From Bdellovibrionota bacterium (GTDB taxonomy: Bacteria > Bdellovibrionota_C > UBA2361 > OMII01): 64,000 nucleotides of DNA. Under the pieces are notes generated by a model, which worked only from the letters and a program-made list of their open reading frames with translations, searched no databases and was not told where the DNA came from. The position numbers and the translations under genes are program-made. Of this stretch, positions 188 to 51,566 are shown piece by piece. The number at the start of each line of letters is the position of its first letter. The first letter of the stretch is position 1. The stretch covers positions 5,511-69,510 of the forward strand of contig JBIIOE010000002.1 of assembly GCA_044337105.1 (NCBI GenBank). Reading direction: 5' to 3'.

Positions 188-514
188 CTACATCTTGACG
201 AGCTCTAGCCTGTATTTCGTCTCAGAATAACTCCCGCGCTGGTTGCCGCACATCAAATTGCGCTCGATCTGGCGCACTCCATCCTCGGACATGCCCATCT
301 TTTCGTAGAATCGGCGGGCTGACTCGTTGTCGCTCTCTACCCAAAGTATGAGCGATTTAACCTGCGGTCGGGTCTGCAGCTCGGTTAGCATCGACTGGAA
401 CAAGGCGCTGCCTACACCGTGCCGATGGTACTCGGGTCGGATCGCCAGCATTGAAAGCTCGACCGTCCCGCGGGCGTACCCAATACTGGGGATAATGCTC
501 GGCCCGAAGCTCAA
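188..514 (-). CDS. GNAT family N-acetyltransferase, possibly N-terminally truncated as predicted
   Basis: Acetyl-CoA-binding motif A (R/Q-x-x-G-x-G/A: 'RHGVGSALF') is present. At 108 aa it is shorter than a typical GNAT, so the start codon is uncertain. Confidence 0.6.
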   Translation of the reverse strand: MSFGPSIIPSIGYARGTVELSMLAIRPEYHRHGVGSALFQSMLTELQTRPQVKSLILWVESDNESARRFYEKMGMSEDGVRQIERNLMCGNQRGSYSETKYRLELVKM

Positions 515-518
515 GAAG

Positions 519-710
519 CCTGGGGAAGCGAGGCAAAACCTACCTGTAGCGAGAAAGTGGAGGTTGGGTCGATATTCGATTTTCGCGATATGGAAAAACC
601 GCAGGTGTATCCTCTGCGATACACTGAGGATTTTTCCATGTCACGAAAATTGAATAACAACCCAACATCCGCTTTCGCAGCAGCGAGGTTTTTTGCCTCG
701 CTTCCCTAGG
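519..710 (+). repeat. family-1 inverted-repeat element, full-length copy A (~190 bp, MITE/REP-like)
   Basis: Ends CCTGGGGAAGCGAGGCAAAACCTACC ... GGTTTTTTGCCTCGCTTCCCTAGG are inverted repeats of each other. The core contains the imperfect palindrome TGGAAAAACCGCAGGTGTATCC..GATACACTGAGGATTTTTCCA. Intergenic, just upstream of the GNAT gene. Confidence 0.8.
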
Positions 711-4850: not shown

Positions 4851-5235
4851 TTTGTAGAATCATACGACACAACGTGCAAATTACGCCGGCCTCTACAGGA
4901 ATTAAGTGCCCGACAATATAAGAATCGCGCAAAGAATTGGGAGTATCACATCTTTCGTCCTACCATGATCTCCATATTTTCCGCAAAAAATGTCTAGCCC
5001 GCCATGAGCCCTCTCCTTACGGTTGAGCTGTGGCTCCTGAGGTCGGCAGATGATGCAACGCGATGTGTTGCGGTGCGCACGCTACTGGCGTCCGAAGAGG
5101 AGCTCGGTTCGGTTGTGAAGATAGGTTTTCGTGCAGTACATGCACCCTCTGTTCGAGGGTGCAGGTTTTAGTTAGCTCCCCACGACGTTCCTTCGCAGTC
5201 GAACGTTTCTCTTTCAACAGGGGAGCGATTCGAGA

Positions 5236-7725
5236 GTGTGTATGAGGTTGTATCTAAAGACGGTCGTGGCACTTTGCCTCGTCACGACCTGCCTTCTTCG
5301 ATCCACGGGTAGGGCGGCAGCACAGGCCGCGTCCTTTACTGTAATGCGGGTGACATCTCTTGCCGATTCCGGAGCAGGAACTCTGCGGGAGTGTGTCTCG
5401 AAGGGATTCCCACGGGTGTGTGTGTTCGAGGTCTCCGGTCGTATCAAATTGTCGAGTGATCTCGTGATTACTCAGCCTGATCTCATAATTGCGGGGCAAA
5501 CCGCTCCGTCGCCCGGAATACTCGTCAGTAATGCCGGAATTAGGGTGAAGAGTCACCATGTTCGCATAGAGCACATCGCCGTTCGCGCGGGAGATGACAA
5601 ATCCGGGCCGGACCCTCGAAGTCGCGACAGTATGAGTATCCAGGGGTCATCGGCTTACGAGGTTAAGCTCAAGAACCTCTCGATATCGTGGGGAGTGGAC
5701 GAGAACTTTTCGACCTACCAGGGTATAAAGAACGTAACGGTAGAGAACTCCATTATCTCTGAGGGGTTGATGTACTCGTTGCATCCGAAGGGGCACCACA
5801 GTATGGGAGCCCTGGTCGGCGAGACAGCACGAAGTGTCATCTTCAGGAACAATCTCTTCGCGGTCAACAATGACCGCAACATACGTTGGAAGTTTGATAC
5901 GACGGGGGCCATGATCAACAACGTCATATACGGATGGGGGGGCACGTCATCGTGGAATACGACGAATCTTTCCGACACCGACGGGGCGAACAAAGCCAAC
6001 GTTTTGGATATCATCGGAAACAGGTATATTCCGGGGCCTCACGGTCTGCAGACGGCGTACGCAGTGTATTCATCCAAAGTCCCGAGCAATTCTAAGATAT
6101 ATCTCGCGGACAATATCGCTTCACGACTCACGAACGTACCGTCTTCCTTTTTGGTGAAGACTCCCAACTTCGGCATCTCGGATGTGATGCCGGTCGCGGA
6201 TGCGTATGAGTATGTTTTGGCCAACGCAGGTAGTCGGCCATGGGATCGCAACGCCGATGACATTCGTGTGATCTCGGGAGTCAAAGCTCGAACGCTGAAG
6301 CTCCGCAACTCTGTAGGCGCTTGGCCTGCATATGAGGTTAACCGCAAGCCGGTGGAGATACCGGATGGAGCGGTGGGGCTCGATCGAATCAACTCAGTCC
6401 TCGCATCGTGCGAAAAATCTTCTGGTTCGACAGTTGAAGCAACGTCGACACCTCCCGTAGTGGCGACAGCCACTCCGCGACCACCGAGCGCTCCGACGCA
6501 GGTCGCTACACCGGTTGTGGCACCGGTAGCAACGCTAGTGCCCTCAACGCCTCCGACAGGGAGTCCGAGCGCACCAGGGATATCTCGCGGCCCTTCTGCG
6601 GCGCGAGCTTATACGGTGGTCAAGGTTACATCGCTTGCGGATGCAGGACAGGGAACGCTGCGGGACTGCGTGGAGAAGCCGTTTCCCCGAGTGTGCGTGT
6701 TCGAGGTTTCTGGTGGTATCAAACTGACCCGGAATCTAGTCGTCGACCAACCCAACCTCGTAGTAGCGGGACAGACAGCGCCTTCTCCAGGGATTGTGTT
6801 GACTAATGCGGGAATTGTGGTCAGGAGTCACGACGTACGAGTCGAGCACCTGAGTGTGCGTAGCGGAGATGCTCCTGATGGGCCAGCGCCGGCGTCTCGG
6901 CGCAGCATCAGCGTCCGGGGCTCTTTAGCGCACGACGTAAGGTTTAAGAACCTCTCAGTTTCGTGGGCAGTGGCTGAGAATATACAGACGGCAGGGCCAG
7001 TAAAGAATGTGGTGTTCGAGAACTGTATCATCTCAGAGGCTCTACACCGTTCGATACATCCCAAAGGAGCTCACAGCATGGGAGTTTCGGTAAATCAGAG
7101 GGCTCGAGGGGTGCGCTTTGTCGGGAATCTTTTGGCTGCTAATGGAGACCGTAACATTAGCTGGCAGTACGATACTCGTGGCGAGATGATCAACAACGTC
7201 ATCTACGGATGGGGAAATGCTAGTTCGCGGAATACGACCAATATCTCCGATCCGAGCAATGCGGGTAGAGCGACAGTGCTGGATGCCATCGGAAATGTCT
7301 TTCTTGCGGGTCCGCAAGGGATGAGTAGGCCATACGCCTTCTATTCGGCAAGCACTCCGAGGGGATCAAAGATCTTCCTGAGTGACAACATCGCGCCACG
7401 ACTTACCAACATAGGGTCAAAGTATCGGGTCAGGCGGCGAAGCTTTGCGGGAGCGACCGCAGCGCCGGCATCGACAACTTTGGAGTCGGTGCTCCGAAGT
7501 GCCGGAGCTCGTCCGTGGGATCGCAATCCGGATGACGCTAGGGTGATAGAAGGGGTCAGGTCACGCTCTCTGCGAATACGCAATAGGGTAGGGGCATGGC
7601 CTCTGTATGCCAGAAACGGGCGCAGCATCCAGATGGCAGAGGCGTTGATTACGCAGGAGCGTCTCGATCGGGCGCTACCGCTCTTCGAAGTGCAAATGGG
7701 TGCTCCCACGTTGCCCGCTTTTTGA
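5236..7725 (+). CDS. secreted protein with two tandem pectate-lyase-like right-handed beta-helix domains joined by a Pro/Thr-rich linker
   Basis: Signal peptide. Each half (aa ~30-400 and ~455-829) carries 'DSMSIQGSS..VKLKNLSISWGVDEN' (compare PL1 'D..I.....NVWIDH.S.S..D') and 'DRNIRWKFD..GAMINNVIYGWG' (PL1 'R.P..R.G...NN.Y'). The two halves are about 70% identical. Confidence 0.6.
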   Translation: MCMRLYLKTVVALCLVTTCLLRSTGRAAAQAASFTVMRVTSLADSGAGTLRECVSKGFPRVCVFEVSGRIKLSSDLVITQPDLIIAGQTAPSPGILVSNAGIRVKSHHVRIEHIAVRAGDDKSGPDPRSRDSMSIQGSSAYEVKLKNLSISWGVDENFSTYQGIKNVTVENSIISEGLMYSLHPKGHHSMGALVGETARSVIFRNNLFAVNNDRNIRWKFDTTGAMINNVIYGWGGTSSWNTTNLSDTDGANKANVLDIIGNRYIPGPHGLQTAYAVYSSKVPSNSKIYLADNIASRLTNVPSSFLVKTPNFGISDVMPVADAYEYVLANAGSRPWDRNADDIRVISGVKARTLKLRNSVGAWPAYEVNRKPVEIPDGAVGLDRINSVLASCEKSSGSTVEATSTPPVVATATPRPPSAPTQVATPVVAPVATLVPSTPPTGSPSAPGISRGPSAARAYTVVKVTSLADAGQGTLRDCVEKPFPRVCVFEVSGGIKLTRNLVVDQPNLVVAGQTAPSPGIVLTNAGIVVRSHDVRVEHLSVRSGDAPDGPAPASRRSISVRGSLAHDVRFKNLSVSWAVAENIQTAGPVKNVVFENCIISEALHRSIHPKGAHSMGVSVNQRARGVRFVGNLLAANGDRNISWQYDTRGEMINNVIYGWGNASSRNTTNISDPSNAGRATVLDAIGNVFLAGPQGMSRPYAFYSASTPRGSKIFLSDNIAPRLTNIGSKYRVRRRSFAGATAAPASTTLESVLRSAGARPWDRNPDDARVIEGVRSRSLRIRNRVGAWPLYARNGRSIQMAEALITQERLDRALPLFEVQMGAPTLPAF

Positions 7726-13262: not shown

Positions 13263-13433
13263 ATCACCTCCGTATACGACGGTTGCTCAATAGCTTTAGA
13301 CCGTAACAGAGGGGCATGTTTCGCCCGTATGATACGGGTTCGGTGGTATGGACATTGAGAGTGTCCGAAGTCGAAAAAGAACGGACTCGAGAAGAGGCGA
13401 GAGATCGGTGAATACGCTCGTCATCGTACTAAC

Positions 13434-13502
13434 CTATAGTGATGTTGAGCAAAAGCCTTGCCGGTTTTACTGGTACGGACTTTTGCACATCGCTATAGCG
13501 TT
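13434..13502. repeat. hairpin repeat, family 2, copy 2 (hairpin-1 module only)
   Basis: CTATAGTGATGT...ACATCGCTATAG stem with loop GAGCAAAAGCCTTGCCGGTTTTACTGGTACGGACTTTTGC. Near-identical to 21059..21122. Confidence 0.7.
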
Positions 13503-20945: not shown

Positions 20946-20976
20946 AAACAGGTGACTGCGCCTTTGTTGGGTGTGT

Positions 20977-21122
20977 ATAGCGTTCACCAAAAGTCCGTAG
21001 CGAGATCACGACTTTTGGAGAACGCTATCGATTCGCGGATGCGAATCAAAACAACAACCTATAGTGATGTACAGCAAAAGCCTTGCCAGTTTTACTGGCA
21101 CGGACTTTTGCACATCGCTATA
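20977..21122. repeat. hairpin repeat, family 2, copy 1 (three stacked hairpins)
   Basis: The first hairpin is 20977..21028, a 19-bp stem ATAGCGTTCaCCAAAAGTC/GACTTTTGGaGAACGCTAT. A 7-bp hairpin GATTCGC-GGAT-GCGAATC follows. The third hairpin is 21059..21122, with the same TATAGTGATGT/ACATCGCTATA module as copy 2. Confidence 0.7.
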
Positions 21123-21614
21123 GACCCAGTAAAGGCGCCCGCTCCGTTCTTGAGTACGGCAGTCGTCCATGTTACATGGATATGGTTTGGGGCGTAGTTC
21201 CCCTCAAATTTGGGTCTCTCGCACTTCTCTGGCGAGCTTGTGGAGTACTCGAGAGAGTCTCTGCATGAGTGACGCTACGTACCTGCAAATTACGACTTTA
21301 GGCAGTATCTAGTCCCGCCTGTTAGAGGCTTAATCTCAGCGGATCTGTTTCCTGTTCTTTTACATCGCCGCATCGCCGTATGACCTGCGATTGGCTTCTG
21401 TAGTGGGTATGTACAAGTCCACCTGATTCATCTTTCGTGCTGACGAATTGTCGGCAGAAAAGAGGATCGGGGAGGAAGAGAGCTTATAAGGTTTTTTGAA
21501 CCTCCTGCGTCAGAGCACTTTACGTTGCCTGTGTGCGCTCCCTCGTTCGTCTTTTGGGGTGAACAGGGGAGCGCACATTGGATGCGTGTGTTTTTTCGCT
21601 AGAGGAGACCAATA

Positions 21615-22217: not shown

Positions 22218-22270
22218 AGAGCGTTCTCCAAAGTTCGTAGCGAGATTACGACTTTTGCACATCTCTATAG
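22218..22270. repeat. hairpin repeat, family 2, copy 3 (deletion chimera of hairpin-2 and hairpin-1 ends)
   Basis: AGAGCGTTCTCCAAAGTTCGTAGCGAGATTACGACTTTTG is joined directly to CACATCTCTATAG. The breakpoint is in GACTTTTG, which both modules share. Confidence 0.6.
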
Positions 22271-24683: not shown

Positions 24684-24699
24684 TCAAGAAAACAGAGAC

Positions 24700-24790
24700 G
24701 CAAGAAGTGAAGCAAAACCTACCCGCAGCGAGAAAGTGAAGGCTGGGTTGCTCTATTCGCTTTCGTAGCAGGGAGGCTCTTGCCTGGTAC
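24700..24790 (+). repeat. family-1 inverted-repeat element, short (ends-only) derivative, copy C
   Basis: GAAGCAAAACCTACCCGCAGCGAGAAAGTGAAGGCTGGGTTGC ... TTCGCTTTCGTAGCAGGGAGGCTCTTGCC. It matches both arms of the full-length copies but lacks the about 100-bp core. Confidence 0.7.
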
Positions 24791-24861
24791 GGTACCATAT
24801 GAATCCGCACTGAGCCACCTGTTGGGAGGGGCTTTGCCTTGCTGCCCTGGGTGTAGCGGTC

Positions 24862-25446
24862 TTACTCCCCAAGAAATCCCATGTCGATGTTCAATAGTCG
24901 CACGACACCGAGCTGCGCTACTACGATAAGAAGCAGCACAAATTGAAAAGCGGCTTTGCGCGTCTTGTGCTTGAACACGTGAATTCCCAGTAGCAATCCC
25001 GGAGAACCACCGAGAAGTCCGATAACGAACAAGATGACCTCTGGTGTTCTCATTGAGCCAGAGCGCGCCAGAGACTTGTCGAGCCCCATGAAAAAAACGG
25101 CCCCCACGTTGATCGCTAAAAATGCGGCAGCGAGAGGTGCAAGATCAAAATGCCACCACACCAGGATAGCAACAAGGATAACGAGAGCACCGCACATGGC
25201 GGAATAAAAGATGTAGGGGTTAGTTCCTCGGAGTGCAACAACCTCAATCTGTACGAGCTTTGAGCCCTTGGGCGTCGAGGTAATGATGCCTTGGAGTACG
25301 CTGCCGACCTGAAGGCGAGCGGTATTCCCCGGCACATCGGAAAGTGCAAAAAACACATCTTTTGCGCTGTCTTCAGTACGTACGAATCCGTATCTCCTTT
25401 GGGGATCGATGGTCGATACAGTTCCGGAAACTTTTGATGAACCCAT
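24862..25446 (-). CDS. cold-shock-domain / DUF1294 fusion membrane protein
   Basis: N-terminal 'GTVSTIDPQRRYGFVRTEDSAKDVFF' is an OB-fold CSD-like module. The C-terminal half has 3 TM helices, the DUF1294 architecture. Confidence 0.65.
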   Translation of the reverse strand: MGSSKVSGTVSTIDPQRRYGFVRTEDSAKDVFFALSDVPGNTARLQVGSVLQGIITSTPKGSKLVQIEVVALRGTNPYIFYSAMCGALVILVAILVWWHFDLAPLAAAFLAINVGAVFFMGLDKSLARSGSMRTPEVILFVIGLLGGSPGLLLGIHVFKHKTRKAAFQFVLLLIVVAQLGVVRLLNIDMGFLGE

Positions 25447-34822: not shown

Positions 34823-35383
34823 TTGTGTGAGCGTGGTTTGAGTGGCGAGGGATCGATGGTGATTGTGAATCGAGGCTGGCGGGTAGGTTTGATGGCGCTC
34901 GTGGTGGTAGCTCAGGTCGCGATCGCTCGCGCTGACGGACGTTTCCCTGATTTGAGGAATGGGAACACCATTGGCCAGGTTATTCAGCAGTGGGGAGACC
35001 CCAAGGAGAAGGTCGAACGGGGGCTCAAGGGGCAGGTGATTTGGTATTACCAAAATGGAGCCTACGTCCTGTTTCAGAGCGGCAAAGTCATCCGTTGGAG
35101 ATCTCCCTCAAGTGGGTCTGTGGTGGAAACTCAGCCCGTTCCGAAAGCCACCGTGGCCACTGTTCCGACGATAGCGGTCGATTCCGCCACGCGAGATTTA
35201 GTCAGGGATATCGCCCGTGAACTTCCTTCCAGCCCCGATGCGCCCTACGTAGAGCAGCCGCCCGCAGCACCGATGCCAGTGGCGCCCGGTAGCTTCGATC
35301 AGCAGAGAGTAGTGCCTCAGCCCGCCCCTGGTTTAGCGCCTGGTAATCCGATCTTGCCGTTCGGGGAGGAAGGGGAGGATTGA
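34823..35383 (+). CDS. hypothetical secreted protein with Pro-rich C-terminus
   Basis: Signal peptide 'GLMALVVVAQVAIARA'. No domain recognised. Confidence 0.4.
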   Translation: MCERGLSGEGSMVIVNRGWRVGLMALVVVAQVAIARADGRFPDLRNGNTIGQVIQQWGDPKEKVERGLKGQVIWYYQNGAYVLFQSGKVIRWRSPSSGSVVETQPVPKATVATVPTIAVDSATRDLVRDIARELPSSPDAPYVEQPPAAPMPVAPGSFDQQRVVPQPAPGLAPGNPILPFGEEGED

Positions 35384-35387
35384 GATT

Positions 35388-35450
35388 ATCCAGGGAAGCG
35401 AGGCACAACCTACCCGTAGCAGGAAAGGGTTTTGCCTCGCTCACCTAGGT
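35388..35450 (+). repeat. family-1 inverted-repeat element, minimal hairpin derivative, copy D
   Basis: CCAGGGAAGCGAGGCACAACCTACCCGTAGCAGGAAAGGGTTTTGCCTCGCTCACCTAGG lies between the convergent stops of 34823..35383 and mltA. The two ends pair directly. Confidence 0.7.
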
Positions 35451-36676
35451 ACCAAGTACACGATACGAGCCGGATGCTGAATGATACCGGCGTAGCACTT
35501 TGCTTCGTCGCCACGGCCCCAAAATAGATCGACCCTATCTGTTCCTGTTATGGCGCCTCCCGAGTCCTGGTCGAGAACGAGGCGAGTTATCTCTACCTCT
35601 CGCAGAGGATCACCCGTGTCTTCCGACTCGTCGCTGAGTACCGGCTTCGAAAAGCTCAAGAGAGCCAGGGCTCCCTTGGGAGCATACTTTGGATCCGCTG
35701 CAATTGTTCGTCCTGGTGTCGCGGGGACGCCCAGGGCTGTGATCGCGCGCTGTGGAGACTTGTTGAAGAATACGTAGCTTGGATTTCGGTAGAGTAGTTC
35801 GTTGCGCTCGTGTTCGGGCATCTCACGCAGTGCCGCTTCGACCCGTTGCATCGTGATCTTCTTCGGAGCTATGCGTTCTTTGAGGAACTTGCCAATCGCT
35901 TCGTATTTTCGTCCATTTTTGTCGGCGTAGGTAATGAAGACCTCACTACCGTCTTCGAGTCGTACCGTTCCAGAGCCCTGAATGTGTAGAAAGAACGCCT
36001 CTATTAGATCTACCCAGCAGAGTTCGAGGCGCCTCCCTTTCAAAACGCCGCCTCCATCTATCTCTTCACGCGTGTAATAGGGGAGCACTTTTCCGTCGTG
36101 AAGCCTTCCTTTGAGAGCATTCTCTCCTTTGAATCGCTCGGAGAACTGCTTCAGATCTATCGTGACTAAGTCGGTAGGTTTCGCATACAGAGGATGTGAG
36201 TGGCTTGAGGTGCGAACAGTGCTGCCGCTGATGATCGGTTCGAAGTAGCTCGTGAGTAGGATCTCTCCCCACTGTTTACCTCCGTATATCTCGAAAAAGC
36301 GAAATCGACTCCGGACAAAATCGATCTTTTCCTCGGTCGACGAAGCGTGTCCGAGCACGTGGTGAAGCTCCTCTAAGGCCTTGGCATATTCCCCGCGTGT
36401 AACTGTGACCGGCCCAAACCGCATCCGTGTCTCAGACGTCCGTTGTAATACAGGACGTTGTGCTTCAATTGCATGCATCAATCCGTCGAAATCGAGATCG
36501 TCCGCGACAGGAGTAGATGTGATTTCCCTAAAAGCGGACTCGGGTCCGGGAACCGCTGGACGAGCGCACGCGGTGAGCACTGTAAGGCCCACTAATCCCC
36601 AGATTTGGCAGAGGAGAATGCCTCTTCCTTTGATGAAATTCGCCCGAAAGAGATTCAGAAATTTCATAGTCACCAT
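35441..36676 (-). CDS. mltA: membrane-bound lytic murein transglycosylase A
   Basis: MltA domain plus a 3D domain ('FFLHIQGSGTVRLEDGSEV', 'GVPATPGRTIAADPKYAPKGALALL'). Confidence 0.85.
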   Translation of the reverse strand: MVTMKFLNLFRANFIKGRGILLCQIWGLVGLTVLTACARPAVPGPESAFREITSTPVADDLDFDGLMHAIEAQRPVLQRTSETRMRFGPVTVTRGEYAKALEELHHVLGHASSTEEKIDFVRSRFRFFEIYGGKQWGEILLTSYFEPIISGSTVRTSSHSHPLYAKPTDLVTIDLKQFSERFKGENALKGRLHDGKVLPYYTREEIDGGGVLKGRRLELCWVDLIEAFFLHIQGSGTVRLEDGSEVFITYADKNGRKYEAIGKFLKERIAPKKITMQRVEAALREMPEHERNELLYRNPSYVFFNKSPQRAITALGVPATPGRTIAADPKYAPKGALALLSFSKPVLSDESEDTGDPLREVEITRLVLDQDSGGAITGTDRVDLFWGRGDEAKCYAGIIQHPARIVYLVPR

Positions 36677-36992
36677 GCGTTGTCGTGCAGTTATGTGAGC
36701 GGTCCTCTTCCAGCACCTTCAAAAGCTGTCTCCTAACTGACCGGTTTAGCCCCCTTAGGGAACTCACCGGGCCTCTTTGAAAGGTATGACCTCACTTGCA
36801 GCGCCTTCTGGCGAGCCCATGACAGTGTCTCGGGAAGCCTCAGCTTGCACAAGACACTTCATGAAGAGCGAAAAAATGAGACCTGCTCGAGCCGATCGCA
36901 TCCTAAAGGATTGTGTAGTTTTCTTTGAAGCGGAAGGGGCGCACGCACTTTCCAAAAGTTGTCGGTTGGTGAAGGTTCTACGAGGTTGACGT

Positions 36993-38588
36993 ATGGAGAG
37001 GGAGCAGGGGATTCTCCACAGTCTGATAGTTGCAGTCCTTGCTGTGTGTTGTGTGCGCATGGCACAAGCGGACCCCAGTTCTCCGTATCGTACCGAAGTA
37101 GCGTTACGCGGGTTCTATGAACTGAAACCGGGAACGAGCGCTGGGGTAGAGCGAGAGATTATTCCTTCCGTGCGGCTGGCAGGGCGTGTGTACGGCGAGG
37201 GTGCCATCGATGCCCGTTTTTCAATCCGCAAAAACAAAACGTGGCGAGCTTTCACGCACAAGGCGGGAAGGCTTCAAGAAGATACTCTCGACCCGGTTCT
37301 TCTCCAGGGTACACTGGCATTAGGGGGTGGCTGGCGGGCTTCCGGGCGTCGGATCTTTCCCACTGCAGCTTCGATTATCGGTAACCGACTCAAGGTCACG
37401 TTCCCCGGACGGGTAAAAGGTTCCCGGCGCTCTCGTCAGCGCGTGTACACTATCAGTTTATCACTTGATGGCTCGCTCGTAGTGAAGGCCAATGTCTCGA
37501 GTATTCCCGTGGCCGCCGCCAGGCGCGGAGCCTGTGGAGTAGAGGTCGAGCCGGAAGCTCATCCGAGGGCTGTGATTGAGCCACTTAAAGACTTCGCGCG
37601 CCAAGAGAGTGCGACCAAGACGGTGCGTGTCGTTACGTTGAGCACGGACGCGGACGAGCAGTGGTATGCCAAATATGGGGATCAGAGCAACGCAGTAATC
37701 GCCAGTATCGTGAATACCGCGGAGGCAATATACGATCGCCAGCTCGATATGCGCTTCAGGATCGTCAAGCAGCACGTGTATACGGATATATCTCCGTACA
37801 CAATGACAGCCCCAGGGGGCTTGTTGAGTAGCTTCACACGCAATCCCGATAATCCGGCCAACTTAGGGATAAACGCTGCTACCTTCGATGATGACGTTAA
37901 TCTCAAACACCTCTTCACGGGTAAGGACTTCGATGGAGGGGTGATCGGTATCGCATACATCGGAGTCGTATGCTCGATCCCGACACTTTCATACGGCATA
38001 ACTCAGGCGTTCGGAGATGGTCCGACGGCGGGCATATTTGCCCACGAGGTCGGGCACAACTTTGGTGCGTATCACGATGTGAATAATCGTGGCAGTTTGA
38101 TGTATCCGAGTATTTCGCTTCCGCCTTCTGACTATTTCTCGCCTACGAGTCTGCAGGAGATACGTGGTCATCTCGAGGAGGCGCGCACGTGTCTATCGGT
38201 CGAGAGTGTAGAACCGCGTCCGGGTAATCCAGCGCCACCCACTAGTGAGGAAGTGCCGACCCCCGTACCAGGGGGTGATGCGCCAGGTCCTCAGGCGTCG
38301 ATCTCTCTCGCAAGGCAGAGGGTGGGTGACGTACGGGCTCCTGTCGTGCGCCTCTCGGGGAAGATGCTGACAGCCAGTAACCTCCCGGCTGCTCAGGTAG
38401 AGTTGCAGCTGGTGGCCGAGGGGGTTGTCGTTGCATCAACGGCCACCAACGATGAGGGGCGTTTCCAGTTCTTCGTGAAGGTTGCGATCCCCGCTGGAAA
38501 GACTATCGAGGTGGTCGTACAGACGAGCGATGGAGCGATCCGGTCGAATACCTTGAACCTGAAAAAGACGAGACCAAAGCGTTCTTGA
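36993..38588 (+). CDS. secreted zinc metalloprotease (reprolysin/M12B-like HExxHxxGxxHD) with C-terminal beta-sandwich domain
   Basis: Signal peptide, 'FAHEVGHNFGAYHD' (extended zincin motif) and a downstream Met-turn 'SLMYP'. Confidence 0.75.
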   Translation: MEREQGILHSLIVAVLAVCCVRMAQADPSSPYRTEVALRGFYELKPGTSAGVEREIIPSVRLAGRVYGEGAIDARFSIRKNKTWRAFTHKAGRLQEDTLDPVLLQGTLALGGGWRASGRRIFPTAASIIGNRLKVTFPGRVKGSRRSRQRVYTISLSLDGSLVVKANVSSIPVAAARRGACGVEVEPEAHPRAVIEPLKDFARQESATKTVRVVTLSTDADEQWYAKYGDQSNAVIASIVNTAEAIYDRQLDMRFRIVKQHVYTDISPYTMTAPGGLLSSFTRNPDNPANLGINAATFDDDVNLKHLFTGKDFDGGVIGIAYIGVVCSIPTLSYGITQAFGDGPTAGIFAHEVGHNFGAYHDVNNRGSLMYPSISLPPSDYFSPTSLQEIRGHLEEARTCLSVESVEPRPGNPAPPTSEEVPTPVPGGDAPGPQASISLARQRVGDVRAPVVRLSGKMLTASNLPAAQVELQLVAEGVVVASTATNDEGRFQFFVKVAIPAGKTIEVVVQTSDGAIRSNTLNLKKTRPKRS

Positions 38589-38717
38589 GACGCAGTAGCT
38601 CCTGGCCAGACTAGAAGATTCTCTTTTTAGGCCCCTAACCTTGACCGAGGCCGTTGCTTCGGCGATATCTGTGGGAGCCCTGAGAGGTCGGGCCGAAGAT
38701 GGTGAGAGGCGAAAGAT

Positions 38718-39095
38718 ATGAGCCAAAAGACAGGTAAGCTCGAGGAAGGGTTGGTCCAGGCGATGAAGGCAATTGATAACCAAGTTGCTCGGGCGTTGCA
38801 GAGGACTCCAGCTGAGCGCGAACAGCTGGGCGTGCAGAAATGGGAGCCGTACGAGAGTCGTATCGAACATGTGACGGCTTTTATCCTCAATGAATTGGGA
38901 GACAATTCCGTCTCTATCGATTCACTCCTTGTTCTCTCTCAATCTTTCACCAAGGCGCTGCGACTTGTAAGCGAGGATTTAGGATTGGATGGGCTTGGCA
39001 CTCTCAGGTCGTCGTATTGCGTTGACGCCATGCAAAAAATACAGCGCGATGCGGACAAGACGCTGGCAGAGCTGTCGACCGAGCGATTGACGTAA
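38718..39095 (+). CDS. hypothetical protein
   Basis: 125-aa ORF, helical. No signature recognised. Confidence 0.35.
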   Translation: MSQKTGKLEEGLVQAMKAIDNQVARALQRTPAEREQLGVQKWEPYESRIEHVTAFILNELGDNSVSIDSLLVLSQSFTKALRLVSEDLGLDGLGTLRSSYCVDAMQKIQRDADKTLAELSTERLT

Positions 39096-39266
39096 ACAAG
39101 CACGATCGTAAACAAGCACGATCGTTCGACAGGGTTCGCGCACAAACTGGGCGAGGTGTGCATCCTGTACTGAGGGATATCATCGGTGTGTCACCACTAG
39201 TGCCTTAGTGTGCCTTCCTCTTGCCGAAGCTTCGGCACGTGCATCGAAGATAGCTCAGGTTGCGTC

Positions 39267-40460
39267 ATGCTAAAAATTGTTCACTGCATTACCGGTCTCA
39301 CAGGAGACGGAGCTCAGGGTATGCTGTTGAGGCTCGTTACTGCCCTTGCAGCACAAGGTATAGAAAATCGTGTGGTCAGTCTCGAAACTCGTCAGCCTAT
39401 GGCCGCTCGTTTCGAGAAGGTTGGTGTGCCCGTCTATTCCTTGGGGATCGACTCAGTTCTTTCCGGGGGGCCGGCATTAGCCACTCTTTGTAAGGTTCTG
39501 AGAGCTGAATCACCGGCTCTTCTGCAGGGATGGATGTATCACGGTAATATGGCCCTGTACCTTGCACGCAAACTTATGCGAGTGCGTACGCCCCTGGTCT
39601 GGAATATCCGTCGAGGATTAGACGACCTCGGAGAACGTTCGTTGAAGACTCGAGGTATGATCTGGATGAATCAGATACTCTCGCGAGTTCCTGCGGGCAT
39701 CGTGTATTGCACCGAACAAAGCATGATACAGCACGAGACTCTCGGGTTCACGCGGGGCAAGGGTGTAGTAATCGGAAACGGATTCGACACTGATCGATAT
39801 CGACCATGTCATGATTCTCGCGACGCAGTGCTAACCAAACTGGGATTTTCGACGGATGCACTCGTAATTGGCCACGTGGGACGTTACGACGTTGCAAAGG
39901 GTCACGTGCACTTACTAGAAGCTTTTTCGCGGGTGCTCTCACAATTCCCACAGGCGCGGCTAGTGTGCGCTGGGCGGGGAGTTGATAAGGACAATAAGGA
40001 CCTCGCAGGGCTTGTGGACCGCTTGGGCCTTGCTCCCTACACGGTATTACTCGGCGAGTGTTCTCCTATCGAGAAGCTGTATCATGCATTCGACATCATG
40101 TGCTCCTCTTCGATAGCGGAGGGTTTTCCAAATGTTGTTGCAGAGGCGATGGCGAGTGGCGTTCCGTGTGTAGTGACAGATACCGGCGCTTCGCGAGTGC
40201 TCGTAGAAGACCTCGGTTTGGTGGTGGAGCCGCGTTCAAGCGCTGCTTTGGGAGATGCCCTCTGTGCGCTGTGTGCGAGGAGTTCAGATGAGCGACGGGC
40301 ATTAGGCGCATTAGGACGAGAAAGGATACGGGGGCTCTACTCTATGCGGGCGGTTTCTCAGCGTTATGCGGATCTGTACGGGAGGGTGTGTGGGGACGAC
40401 AGGCTCTCTTCGCATCCCGTGGCTAGCAATCCCCGTGATGACAGAGTAGGGGTCGTCTGA
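39267..40460 (+). CDS. glycosyltransferase family 4 (GT-B, 'glycosyl transferases group 1')
   Basis: N-terminal 'IVHCITGLTGDGAQ', C-terminal 'SSIAEGFPNVVAEAMASGVPCVVTDTG' (E-x7-E region). Confidence 0.8.
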   Translation: MLKIVHCITGLTGDGAQGMLLRLVTALAAQGIENRVVSLETRQPMAARFEKVGVPVYSLGIDSVLSGGPALATLCKVLRAESPALLQGWMYHGNMALYLARKLMRVRTPLVWNIRRGLDDLGERSLKTRGMIWMNQILSRVPAGIVYCTEQSMIQHETLGFTRGKGVVIGNGFDTDRYRPCHDSRDAVLTKLGFSTDALVIGHVGRYDVAKGHVHLLEAFSRVLSQFPQARLVCAGRGVDKDNKDLAGLVDRLGLAPYTVLLGECSPIEKLYHAFDIMCSSSIAEGFPNVVAEAMASGVPCVVTDTGASRVLVEDLGLVVEPRSSAALGDALCALCARSSDERRALGALGRERIRGLYSMRAVSQRYADLYGRVCGDDRLSSHPVASNPRDDRVGVV

Positions 40461-40777
40461 CCTGTGATAGCTATGCTCGGCCTCGCGTAGGGAGTGTTAT
40501 GTTGTTGTTTAATCTTGAGTTTTTGCCTCTGGGAGGCTCGCTGGCCGGGTGTCTGCTGCCATTTTGAGTCAGGGGTGGGAGGGGGCTGGCGTGCCGCTGT
40601 CAAGTGTTCGTTGACCCCGGCTCCGTCTGCCTGGTATCCTCAGGAGGATTATCTGGTTACCGCTCCGGGACCCTACCGGTGGATATTGATGGCTTGAGAT
40701 CGTTCAAGCATCGGTGTGCGCTTCCGACACTGAGTTCCTGCGGCCTATCAGAATGATAATTGCCGTGGAGGAATGAA

Positions 40778-41143: not shown

Positions 41144-41146
41144 TCT

Positions 41147-41338
41147 CCCCTAGGGAAGCGAGGCAACCCCCCCCTGCTACGAAAGCGGATCTTGGGTTGC
41201 TCTCCGACTTTCGCGATGTGGAAAAATCCTCAGTGTATCGCAGCGGATACACCTGCGGATTTTCCACATCGAGAAAATCGAATATCACCCAACCTCCACT
41301 TTCTCGCTACGGGTAGGTTTTGCTTCGCTTCCCAAGCT
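41147..41338 (-). repeat. family-1 inverted-repeat element, full-length copy B (opposite orientation to copy A)
   Basis: The reverse complement aligns along about 190 bp with 519..710, including the central imperfect palindrome TGGAAAAATCC..CAGCGGATACACCTGCGGATTTTCCA. It starts 4 nt after the RRM gene stop. Confidence 0.8.
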
Positions 41339-50349: not shown

Positions 50350-50686
50350 AGAGCGTACCTCCGTAATGTGAGCGAGTATTGCACGGGAGGCGGTTGAGCC
50401 GGAAGTGCCATGAAGTCGGTAGGCTTGGACAGATGTAGAGAGCAGGGGAGTGTAGAACCTTACGCGGCCGTGGGTGCTGCCTCTGTTTACCAGAAATCCA
50501 CATGAGGAGGCTCATTTCGTGCGCAGTGGCCCTCGCAGTAGAGCTGGGCTTGGCTCCGCTTTCCGAGGTGACTCCTCTCATGTCGACAGGCGGCAGTTGT
50601 TGATATCTCCGTGCTCCATGTCCGACATCCACGTGTCAGAAGATGTCGGCAATCGCTTCAACGGATAATGCTCTGGAGATTTCATT

Positions 50687-51442
50687 ATGACCATGCTCGA
50701 ACGTTTCATGACCGGTAATCGCAGCTCTCGCGGGGGGTACCTTCGCGAGCGAATCAGGGAGAACGTCGGGCGTAGGGAGCGGGGCGCATCTACGGTCGCT
50801 GGTGGATTCATGATAATCGACGGGCTCCGTCGTCGTGGCGTGAGTGGCCTGATAGAAAGTGTGTTGGGGGCAAGTCTCTTGTACCGCGGAAGCACAGGCT
50901 TCTGCTGGCTTTACAACATGCTGAACATAGATATGGCAGAAGAGCGTGAAGGACGTCCGAGTATACGAGTTCAACGGACTATCACCATCGATCGGGATCC
51001 TCAGACGGTGTACTCTGTGTGGCGAAGATTCGAGAATCTTCCGCGCTTTCTTCACCACGTCGAATCGATCTCTCCCTTGGACGGTAATCGCTTTCGCTGG
51101 GTAGTTCGAGGACCCCAGGGCCGGAAGGTCGAGTGGAATGCCGAGATCGTCGAAGACGTACCAGGGCACCACTTAGCGTGGCGTTCGGAGGAAGGGGCGC
51201 CCTTGCGACACTCAGGTGCGGTGGGGTTCCTGCCCCTCGAGGGCGGGCGTGCCACTGAGGTGAAGGTGTCTCTGCAGTACGAGCCAACTCGGGGCGCCTT
51301 CCGGGATGTCGTGAGCAGACTTCTCGGCGATGATCCGCGGAGGCAGATACGTGAGGATCTCGAGCGATTTAAGCGTGTGGCCGAAGAGGAGAGTGGCTTC
51401 GAATCGCGTGGGTGGCCGCAGGAGTCGCCTCGGGTGGTCTAG
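50687..51442 (+). CDS. SRPBCC (polyketide cyclase/dehydrase-like) protein with N-terminal DUF2892/YgaP-like segment
   Basis: 'VQRTITIDRDPQTVYSVWRRFENLPRFLHHVESI' starts a Bet v1-like START fold. A short N-terminal hydrophobic patch is present. Confidence 0.6.
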   Translation: MTMLERFMTGNRSSRGGYLRERIRENVGRRERGASTVAGGFMIIDGLRRRGVSGLIESVLGASLLYRGSTGFCWLYNMLNIDMAEEREGRPSIRVQRTITIDRDPQTVYSVWRRFENLPRFLHHVESISPLDGNRFRWVVRGPQGRKVEWNAEIVEDVPGHHLAWRSEEGAPLRHSGAVGFLPLEGGRATEVKVSLQYEPTRGAFRDVVSRLLGDDPRRQIREDLERFKRVAEEESGFESRGWPQESPRVV

Positions 51443-51459
51443 CTAAGCCAGGCAAAGCC

Positions 51460-51566
51460 GGGGCGAAGCGAGGACATAGAGCCTTCGTCGCGCGTGTTTC
51501 TATCAGGAAGCGAGGCGAGGCCTCTACTGCCGCAGCAGGGAGGGGTTTTGCCCTGCTTCCATAAGG
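51460..51566. repeat. family-1 inverted-repeat element, degenerate copy E
   Basis: GGGGCGAAGCGAGGACATAG...GGAAGCGAGGCGAGG...GCAGCAGGGAGGGGTTTTGCCCTGCTTCC retains the family end motifs. Intergenic, between the SRPBCC gene and tlyA. Confidence 0.55.

Follow-up and report, generated by a model that had tools for sequence, protein, structure and literature searches.

Introduction

ERIC sequences of enterobacteria reportedly occur as shorter variants that arose by internal deletion and as longer variants that arose by internal insertion, as Sharp & Leach (1996) and Wilson & Sharp (2006) are said to have found. The target of IS630 is CTAG. ERIC elements carry terminal repeats of 7 bp, and Correia elements exist in 155-bp and 107-bp forms that differ by an internal segment of ~50 bp (PMC2229807). 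Correia elements also have TA termini and long stem-loop transcripts, and some of their copies are fused to the ends of ORFs (PMC2229807).

Here we describe an element family found in a 64-kb stretch of Bdellovibrionota DNA (the window). The family is an ERIC/Correia-type palindromic bacterial MITE with typical internal-deletion decay. We paid particular attention to three short intergenic loci, which an earlier note had taken for derivatives that keep both arms of the element and lack its core. This description held for 35389-35449, whereas the loci at 24700 and 51460 turned out to be composites. All three are probably shortened copies of a non-autonomous, TA-flanked and whole-length-palindromic MITE, with a 192-bp master form, of a freshwater Bdellovibrionota clade.

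Results

A whole-length hairpin element in the window

Repeat finding and BLAST within the window revealed two full copies, 88% identical to each other, that served as references:

519-710, plus strand: full copy, 192 bp, whole-length hairpin
41149-41336, minus strand: full copy, 188 bp

Folding showed that the 192-nt element forms one end-to-end hairpin (dG -120 kcal/mol, z -15), and its ends consist of inverted repeats (CCTRGGGAAGCGAGGCAAAACC / GGTTTTGCCTCGCTTCCCTAGG). The window holds five element loci. A 28-nt left-arm pattern with up to three mismatches matched the window 3 times (0.00 expected) and a 19-nt right-end pattern 7 times (0.01 expected), so that the arm similarity on which the earlier note relied lies far above chance. 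Exact GAAGCGAGG occurs at six sites, compared with 1.15 expected, and all six are inside element loci. We mapped the short loci with a profile of 27 full copies. In the copy at 24700, where MAFFT had misaligned the right arm, this arm was placed by profile search. A candidate right arm at 50534-50568 (66% in the repeat search) was rejected, as the profiles gave it no support. Across the whole window, Rfam 15 at the gathering threshold returned no matches, and a tRNA/tmRNA search found none.

Other features of the window were recorded alongside. The start (TTG) of a GNAT acetyltransferase ORF (188-514, minus strand) lies 5 nt from the full element at 519-710, and the Pfam model is matched only from position 56 onward; this gene may have been truncated at its 5′ end by the insertion of the element. 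An unrelated repeat family with CTATAG-type ends is present at 13431-13498, 20973-21125 and 22230-22268, with two 68-nt copies (13431 and 21056) that are 94% identical and with inverted arms at 20973-20998 and 21100-21125. It is probably another small palindromic element. Finally, several direct repeats with a spacing of exactly 1275 nt (5415-5939 compared with 6690-7214; 72-85% identity) lie inside ORF 5236-7725 (829 aa) and indicate a putative internal tandem duplication of ~425 codons.

The family in other genomes

A scan with a degenerate left-arm pattern detected 61 loci in ~10 MAGs, all of them Bdellovibrionota or 'Proteobacteria'-labelled MAGs from lakes and ponds. The logo of the 122 ends reads C or T, T (104/122), A (105/122), G or A, and then an invariant GGAAGCGAGGCAAAACC. 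The terminal inverted repeat (TIR) is ~22 nt long, (C)CTAGGGAAGCGAGGCAAAACC, and 17 of its positions are 98-100% conserved over the 122 ends. The units measure 60-260 bp and hold no intrinsic ORF. Their core-to-core lengths fall into the following classes:

182 bp, n=28: the 192-bp full form, subfamily A
51-57 bp, n=7: short hairpins
129 bp, n=2: L038 and L041, which share an interior and lie at separate sites of one MAG
172-173 bp, n=5: subfamily B
204-206 bp, n=3
251-252 bp, n=4

All the long classes are whole-length hairpins (z -8 to -17). In assembly the element repeats break MAG contigs, and many family matches lie at contig ends.

Copies are polymorphic between species. At L010:4771-4960, a full A copy plus a stub occupies a site that is empty in the window:

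39093-39095, plus strand: empty target site, the TAA stop of ORF 38718-39095; filled in L010

At the position of L010 equivalent to 39095, the terminal CTAG of the inserted copy provides the stop of the ORF. Another copy, L073:19909-20098, has no counterpart in the window. A TA is present at both one-sided empty sites, window 39095 and L076. A virtual-empty-site BLAST of all element flanks against all loci yielded no clean two-sided filled/empty pair, and L036 was rejected as an empty site, its synteny breaking at the element. The end logo and the two one-sided comparisons suggest that insertion would duplicate TA inside a YTAR target. Contigs from five independent samples were 99.6-100% identical to one another, with no strain differences in or around the three short copies. 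The genome is present in SRR27419734, SRR10955595, JGI 3300042476 and 3300047094, and ERZ27272098. These comparisons establish the existence of the family, its ~22-nt TIRs and Y-TA-R ends, its polymorphism between species and its discrete size classes.

Subfamily B has the terminal repeats of the window element, together with an unrelated interior (CACGTGAACGTG...) that also makes a whole-length hairpin. This interior was not found in the window; in relatives, B copies occupy the sites of the window's short A-type copies.

L014:4249-4429, L031:857-1037, L001:147-326 and L010:899-1055: subfamily B copies
L072:8834-8989, L075:3077-3217 and L058 (two copies): subfamily B copies

A second MITE family of ~195 bp, absent from the window, has its own perfect ~21-nt terminal repeats (cTAGCAGGGTGGTGAAAAATGG). 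Its 46-nt central core hairpin is common to the 192-bp element (~87% identity). Isolated core matches had been considered a conserved host locus 5′ of a small membrane-protein gene; alignment showed them to belong to this second family.

L041:690-880, L005:6440-6630 and L018:3385-3580: second MITE family
L029:1-190 (minus strand) and L035:5200-5390: second MITE family
L007:4160-4275: internally deleted copy of the second family
L060:2900-3150, minus strand: expanded copy of the second family

We also observed an ultra-short variant in two different genomes, made up of one terminal repeat, then a small hairpin (AACGCAGTCGCGTTG), then the opposite end in truncated form:

L022:207-250 and L074:8891-8940: ultra-short variant

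In ~0.6 Mb of fetched DNA, we detected no autonomous transposase whose ends match those of the element. The larger TIR-bounded units in L059, L044, L004 and L022 showed no coding capacity, and the ORFs flanked by inverted repeats were host genes only (photolyase, HD, Cache, and one 468-aa ORF without a Pfam family). This 468-aa ORF lies in L020:4884-6702 between two full copies (4884-5074 and 6512-6702), a layout that resembles a composite transposon. A transposase gene bounded by GGGAAGCGAGGCAAAACC, if present, would complete the MITE assignment.

The three short loci

Short copies were sorted by the junction at which the two arms meet:

Class S1: window 35389, window 51503 and L006, joined at CGYAGC
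Class S2: window 24701 and L023, joined at ATYCG.TTTYCG
Class S3: L017 and L040, left position ~34 joined to 126
Unique junctions: L007, L034, L002, L026 and L046

The locus at the 3′ end of mltA is the simplest of the three:

35389-35449, plus strand: S1-class short hairpin, 61 bp, fold z -5 to -6

Two profile matches (35391-35429 to profile positions 3-41, E 7e-6; 35415-35448 to 158-191, E 0.006) overlap over 15 nt that fit both arms. The left arm runs to CGTAGC and is followed directly by the right arm, AGG..TTTTGCC..CCTAGG. As the earlier note had described, the hairpin sits between convergent genes. It begins 5 nt past the TGA of ORF 34823-35383, and on its other side the TGA of mltA (35441-35443, minus strand; product with Pfam MltA+3D) falls inside the right repeat, which is mutated from GGGAAGCG to GGTGAGCG. 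In the full copy 41149-41336, CGTAGC occurs as an exact direct repeat at 41306-41311 and 41176-41181 (spacing 130 nt), and deletion between the two is predicted to leave 58 nt that agree with 35389-35449 in 49 of 61 columns. In L010, which is syntenic with window 34845-40524 at ~77% nucleotide identity, the 3′ end of mltA carries at the identical position a 157-bp internally deleted B-type copy (E 2e-38), and the gene extends 6 codons into the repeat there.

The locus at 24700 is a composite with remains of at least two elements:

24701-24754, plus strand: left arm of an S2-class deleted copy (24704-24754 matches profile 7-57, E 3e-10)
24755-24785, plus strand: subterminal right-arm piece of the S2 copy (profile 149-180, E 0.045)
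24817-24851, plus strand: second right arm with terminal repeat (26/34 to consensus)

The right-arm piece 24755-24785 agrees exactly with the full copy of the window over 16/16 positions. The copy at 24701-24790 has lost ~91 nt of its centre as well as the outermost ~12 nt of the right terminal repeat, and it does not fold into a hairpin (z -1.1). The note's interval 24700..24790 was therefore correctly seen as an internally deleted copy, but its outer right repeat has been lost and the better right arm lies outside it, at 24817-24851. This second arm matches the TIR with 3 mismatches (0.01 expected), although its profile E of 0.32 is marginal; 10 nt separate its end from the stop codon of CSD-DUF1294 (24862-25446, minus strand). 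The left boundary of the 24701 copy was set by the empty orthologous site of L076, upstream of the aminotransferase gene, where homology resumes at window 24700. L075 carries a B-type copy on the DUF1294 stop (E 5e-12), and the same junction class as in 24701-24790 occurs in another MAG at L023:7803-7895. A GT2 glycosyltransferase and a 2-hydroxyacid dehydrogenase gene stand between DUF1294 and the aminotransferase in three relatives and are absent from the window. Comparison of window 24698-24861 with L076:3013-5276 places the element cluster exactly at this junction, and the cluster may be a recombination scar.

The third locus occupies the SRPBCC-tlyA spacer:

51441-51461, plus strand: degenerate left-end stub, directly on the SRPBCC stop codon TAG
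51462-51491, plus strand: degenerate left-end stub, with exact GAAGCGAGG at 51465
51503-51566, plus strand: S1-type short hairpin, 64 bp, z -4, with GCCGCAGC joined directly to AGGGAGGGG

The ~105-bp derivative that had been placed at 51460..51566 includes degenerate remains; its real unit is the well-formed 64-bp hairpin 51503-51566, in which 51527-51564 matches profile 154-191 (E 2e-5); the stubs within 51441-51491 are older than this unit. Three A>G changes in its left arm give G.U pairs on the plus strand only, and its fold reaches dG -36.9 on the sense strand versus -27.2 on the other. The tlyA loci of four related species were fetched through TlyA homologues, and the spacer measures 161, 77, 198, 91 and 91 bp in the five species. 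At the position orthologous to the stub 51441-51461, L072, L073 and L074 likewise have left ends. A B-type unit with internal deletions of its own fills the L072 spacer (E 3e-19), and the right junction, TA followed by AGGGrCGACTTGA, is common to the window and L072. L073 and L074 have end-like stubs only, on the stop codon, with E values of 13 and 2.3 that are individually not significant, and the L071 spacer has a right-end-like remnant.

Deletion junctions and decay of inserted copies

At orthologous sites the relatives' copies are shortened differently, so that decay in place is visible. The junctions suggest how the centre of the hairpin would have been lost: a short direct repeat of one arm (CGYAGC in the ~60-bp class, ATYCG.TTTYCG in the ~90-bp class) would have slipped onto or recombined with its partner on the other, folding of the hairpin bringing the two together. 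The CGTAGC repeats lie near-symmetrically on the arms, and this is the geometry expected for slippage across a hairpin. The interpretation of the earlier note, a deletion series produced by MITE decay, is supported by the TIRs, the TA ends, the lack of coding capacity, the large number of scattered copies, the sites filled in one species and empty in another, the defined internal deletions and the orthologous copies that were shortened differently.

Simple deletion in place is nevertheless not the whole story, since the window has A-type arms where relatives have B-type interiors. Replacement by re-insertion or conversion must also have occurred at orthologous sites, as is supported by the 5 of 122 ends that abut another copy's end via a shared YTAR (background 0.5%). 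The ends of a copy appear to constitute the element's own preferred target, CTAG, and new copies would thus land on old ones, leaving tandem stubs and replacing the resident copy. The composite loci at 24700 and 51460 would have formed because new copies insert into the CTAG ends of old copies.

Junctions alone do not give the direction of change, since the loss of sequence between direct repeats leaves the same picture as an insertion that brings a duplication with it. Moreover, a junction shared by different genomes could instead reflect multiplication of the short forms themselves. According to this alternative, the short forms are short subfamilies with both terminal repeats that are mobilised in their own right. 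Classes S1, S2 and S3 do recur at non-orthologous sites of different MAGs, the 129-bp class (L038 and L041) shows one interior at two sites of a single MAG, and L006, L007 and L034 have perfect or almost perfect terminal repeats. However, each class has only 2-3 copies, two metagenome scans (an S1-junction 28-mer and TIR-N{15,45}-TIR) returned 0 matches each, degeneration has gone further in the window's short copies than in its full ones, and recurrent deletion at the same direct repeats predicts an identical pattern. We consider the multiplication of short forms possible but rather improbable; it and decay in place are not mutually exclusive.

Stop codons, genomic context and the terminator question

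The terminal TA+R of the element is an in-frame stop codon at 17 of the 122 ends, counting ORFs of >=100 codons and including one known false positive at an RRM gene, compared with 4 and 4 in the control frames (p=4e-4). Eight further ORFs run 1-41 codons into the repeat, among them mltA in the window and in L010. Inside the window, stop codon and element overlap at two places:

41149-41153: stop-codon/element overlap
35441-35449: stop-codon/element overlap

Inspected by hand, the complete elements that supply a stop do so with the left arm in 5 cases and with the right arm in 6, without orientation bias relative to the upstream gene. The short copies would adjoin stop codons because the element targets TA within YTAR and insertions into the TA of a stop are tolerated, the first base of the element (G or A) rebuilding TAG or TAA at the interrupted stop. 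Targeting of YTAR and rebuilding of stops could thus account for the earlier picture of a hairpin wedged between stop codons, with no need for termination.

The same note had raised the possibility that a minimal hairpin is repeatedly exapted as a terminator or attenuator, and had proposed to test whether short forms sit preferentially at gene 3′ ends. The exaptation reading was not supported. By crude longest-ORF gene calls, copies lie in tandem, convergent and divergent spacers in numbers of 21, 15 and 10, which match the background of 218, 86 and 88 (chi-square p=0.20). Among the short forms, ~2 of ~11 lie between divergent genes (L034 and, less certainly, L007, by the same crude calls), as in the whole family and in background intergenic types. 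No T-run follows 24701-24790, 35389-35449 or 51503-51566 on either strand, and a terminator scan called none of the three short copies. A call did fall on the central core of the full copy (41253-41232), where a stem-loop stands between an A-run and a T-run; this is the sole terminator-like module, and the short forms are devoid of exactly that core. This core (41232-41253, minus strand) reads alike in both directions. Judged from these scans, the exaptation of short copies as terminators appears unsupported.

A broader version holds that the host has adopted the short hairpins, especially 35389-35449, either as terminators or as 3′-end hairpins that stabilise or attenuate RNA. It is in keeping with the stability of 35389-35449 and 51503-51566 (dG -33 to -37, z -4 to -6), with the sense-strand G.U pairing retained in the latter, and with the position of all three short loci 3′ of a stop codon. 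Both ends of the copy at the mltA site are also recognisable in the ~77%-identical genome, and effects on mRNA stability are known for ERIC and Correia elements (PMC2229807). Yet, besides the missing T-runs, scan calls and core, 24701-24790 does not fold, nor do the short forms of the L017/L040 type, some short forms appear to lie between divergent genes in a context equal to background, and two of the three loci (not 35389-35449) lie 15-38 nt upstream of the next co-directional gene. The copies at the mltA site belong to different subfamilies, and turnover accounts for their good state better than conservation does. Host adoption is in our view unlikely, although a role of 35389-35449, the one clean hairpin between convergent genes, is conceivable.

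Singleton mutations, which are strand-symmetric, speak on the same question. The alignment of 27 full copies (A2), which includes window 519-710 and 41146-41337, shows compensatory double changes at 16 of 71 stem pairs. Its wobble cells comprise 164 G.U versus 24 A.C. Among variants present in >=2 copies there are 15 G.U versus 3 A.C (p=0.008), whereas singleton wobbles divide into 16 G.U versus 18 A.C (p=0.86). The consensus folds with -124.5 kcal/mol on one strand versus -106.2 on the other. In our reading, selection acts on the structure of one strand in the multiplying lineages, and inserted copies decay neutrally. Strand-symmetric decay of singletons argues against general exaptation, and the short forms would be relics of neutrally decaying insertions. 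It is conceivable, though doubtful, that a strand-specific single-stranded hairpin intermediate (DNA or RNA) mobilises the MITE, or that the hairpin transcript has a function of its own; if so, the ~60-bp forms would represent the minimal structure that is still recognised.

It is very improbable that the ~60-bp hairpin is the ancestral minimal element and that long forms grew from it by palindromic modules added at the hairpin tip. Subfamilies A and B do share terminal repeats while having unrelated interiors in whole-length hairpins, the 46-nt core hairpin also occurs in a second MITE family, whose terminal repeats are different, and the 129-bp class differs from the 192-bp form by roughly this 46-nt core. 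Nevertheless, S1 copies continue past the shared repeat with arm sequence specific to A on either side, the junctions are many and different as against a single abundant and highly similar master form, and for a short form to grow, 130 nt would have to be inserted together with a duplication of 6 nt, which does not resemble the family's TA target. Integron attC sites, considered in view of the palindromes of variable length that lie 3′ of genes, were rejected, as the sequence contains no GTTRRRY/RYYYAAC core sites and the adjacent genes are housekeeping genes. Shortening of a 192-bp MITE remains the reading that we prefer for the three loci.

Discussion

The loci analysed here belong to a palindromic MITE family, abundant and undescribed, of uncultured freshwater Bdellovibrionota; the literature search retrieved no paper on Bdellovibrio MITEs. 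They provide a worked example of element shrinkage, by deletion at short direct repeats across a hairpin, with repeated use of favoured sites, since every copy carries its own CTAG target at its ends. The current understanding of MITEs is left unchanged, and the fate of the shortened copies is ordinary for such elements. For annotation, about 1 in 7-8 ends gives the neighbouring gene its stop codon, and some genes, such as mltA, end inside the repeat; hairpins of this MITE family should not be taken as terminators.

Among known systems, the REP/BIME/REPIN sequences associated with RAYT are likewise abundant intergenic palindromes, a REPIN consisting of two inverted units that form one hairpin, and they too include decayed singlets and a strand-specific structure that is read in single-stranded DNA. 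REP units, however, are 20-40 nt long, with a GTAG-type 5′ motif and no target duplication, whereas the present element has long TIRs and TA flanks, an anatomy that would argue against REP/REPIN. Stowaway-type MITEs, which IS630/Tc1-mariner transposases mobilise, resemble it in their TA target or duplication, their CTAG-like preference and their short, non-coding, TIR-bounded form; they differ in that no cognate transposase was found here in ~0.6 Mb and that the putative duplication is read from one-sided sites. Palindrome-stimulated deletion in E. coli by slipped mispairing also has its endpoints in 5-6-nt direct repeats placed near-symmetrically on the hairpin arms and yields shorter hairpins; here such a process is predicted from the junction sequences.

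The likeness to Correia/NEMIS elements of Neisseria lies in small non-coding TIR elements with TA termini and size forms that differ by an internal segment. There is no sequence similarity between the two, the host phylum here is Bdellovibrionota, all 192 bp rather than the ends only make one hairpin, and the size classes are more numerous. ERIC has 7-bp terminal repeats versus ~22 nt here. Its RNA effects depend on orientation, and the Bdellovibrionota copies showed no orientation bias. ERIC/IRU, together with YPAL, nevertheless share with the present element a whole-length imperfect palindrome, TA flanks, an intergenic location and both deletion and insertion variants.
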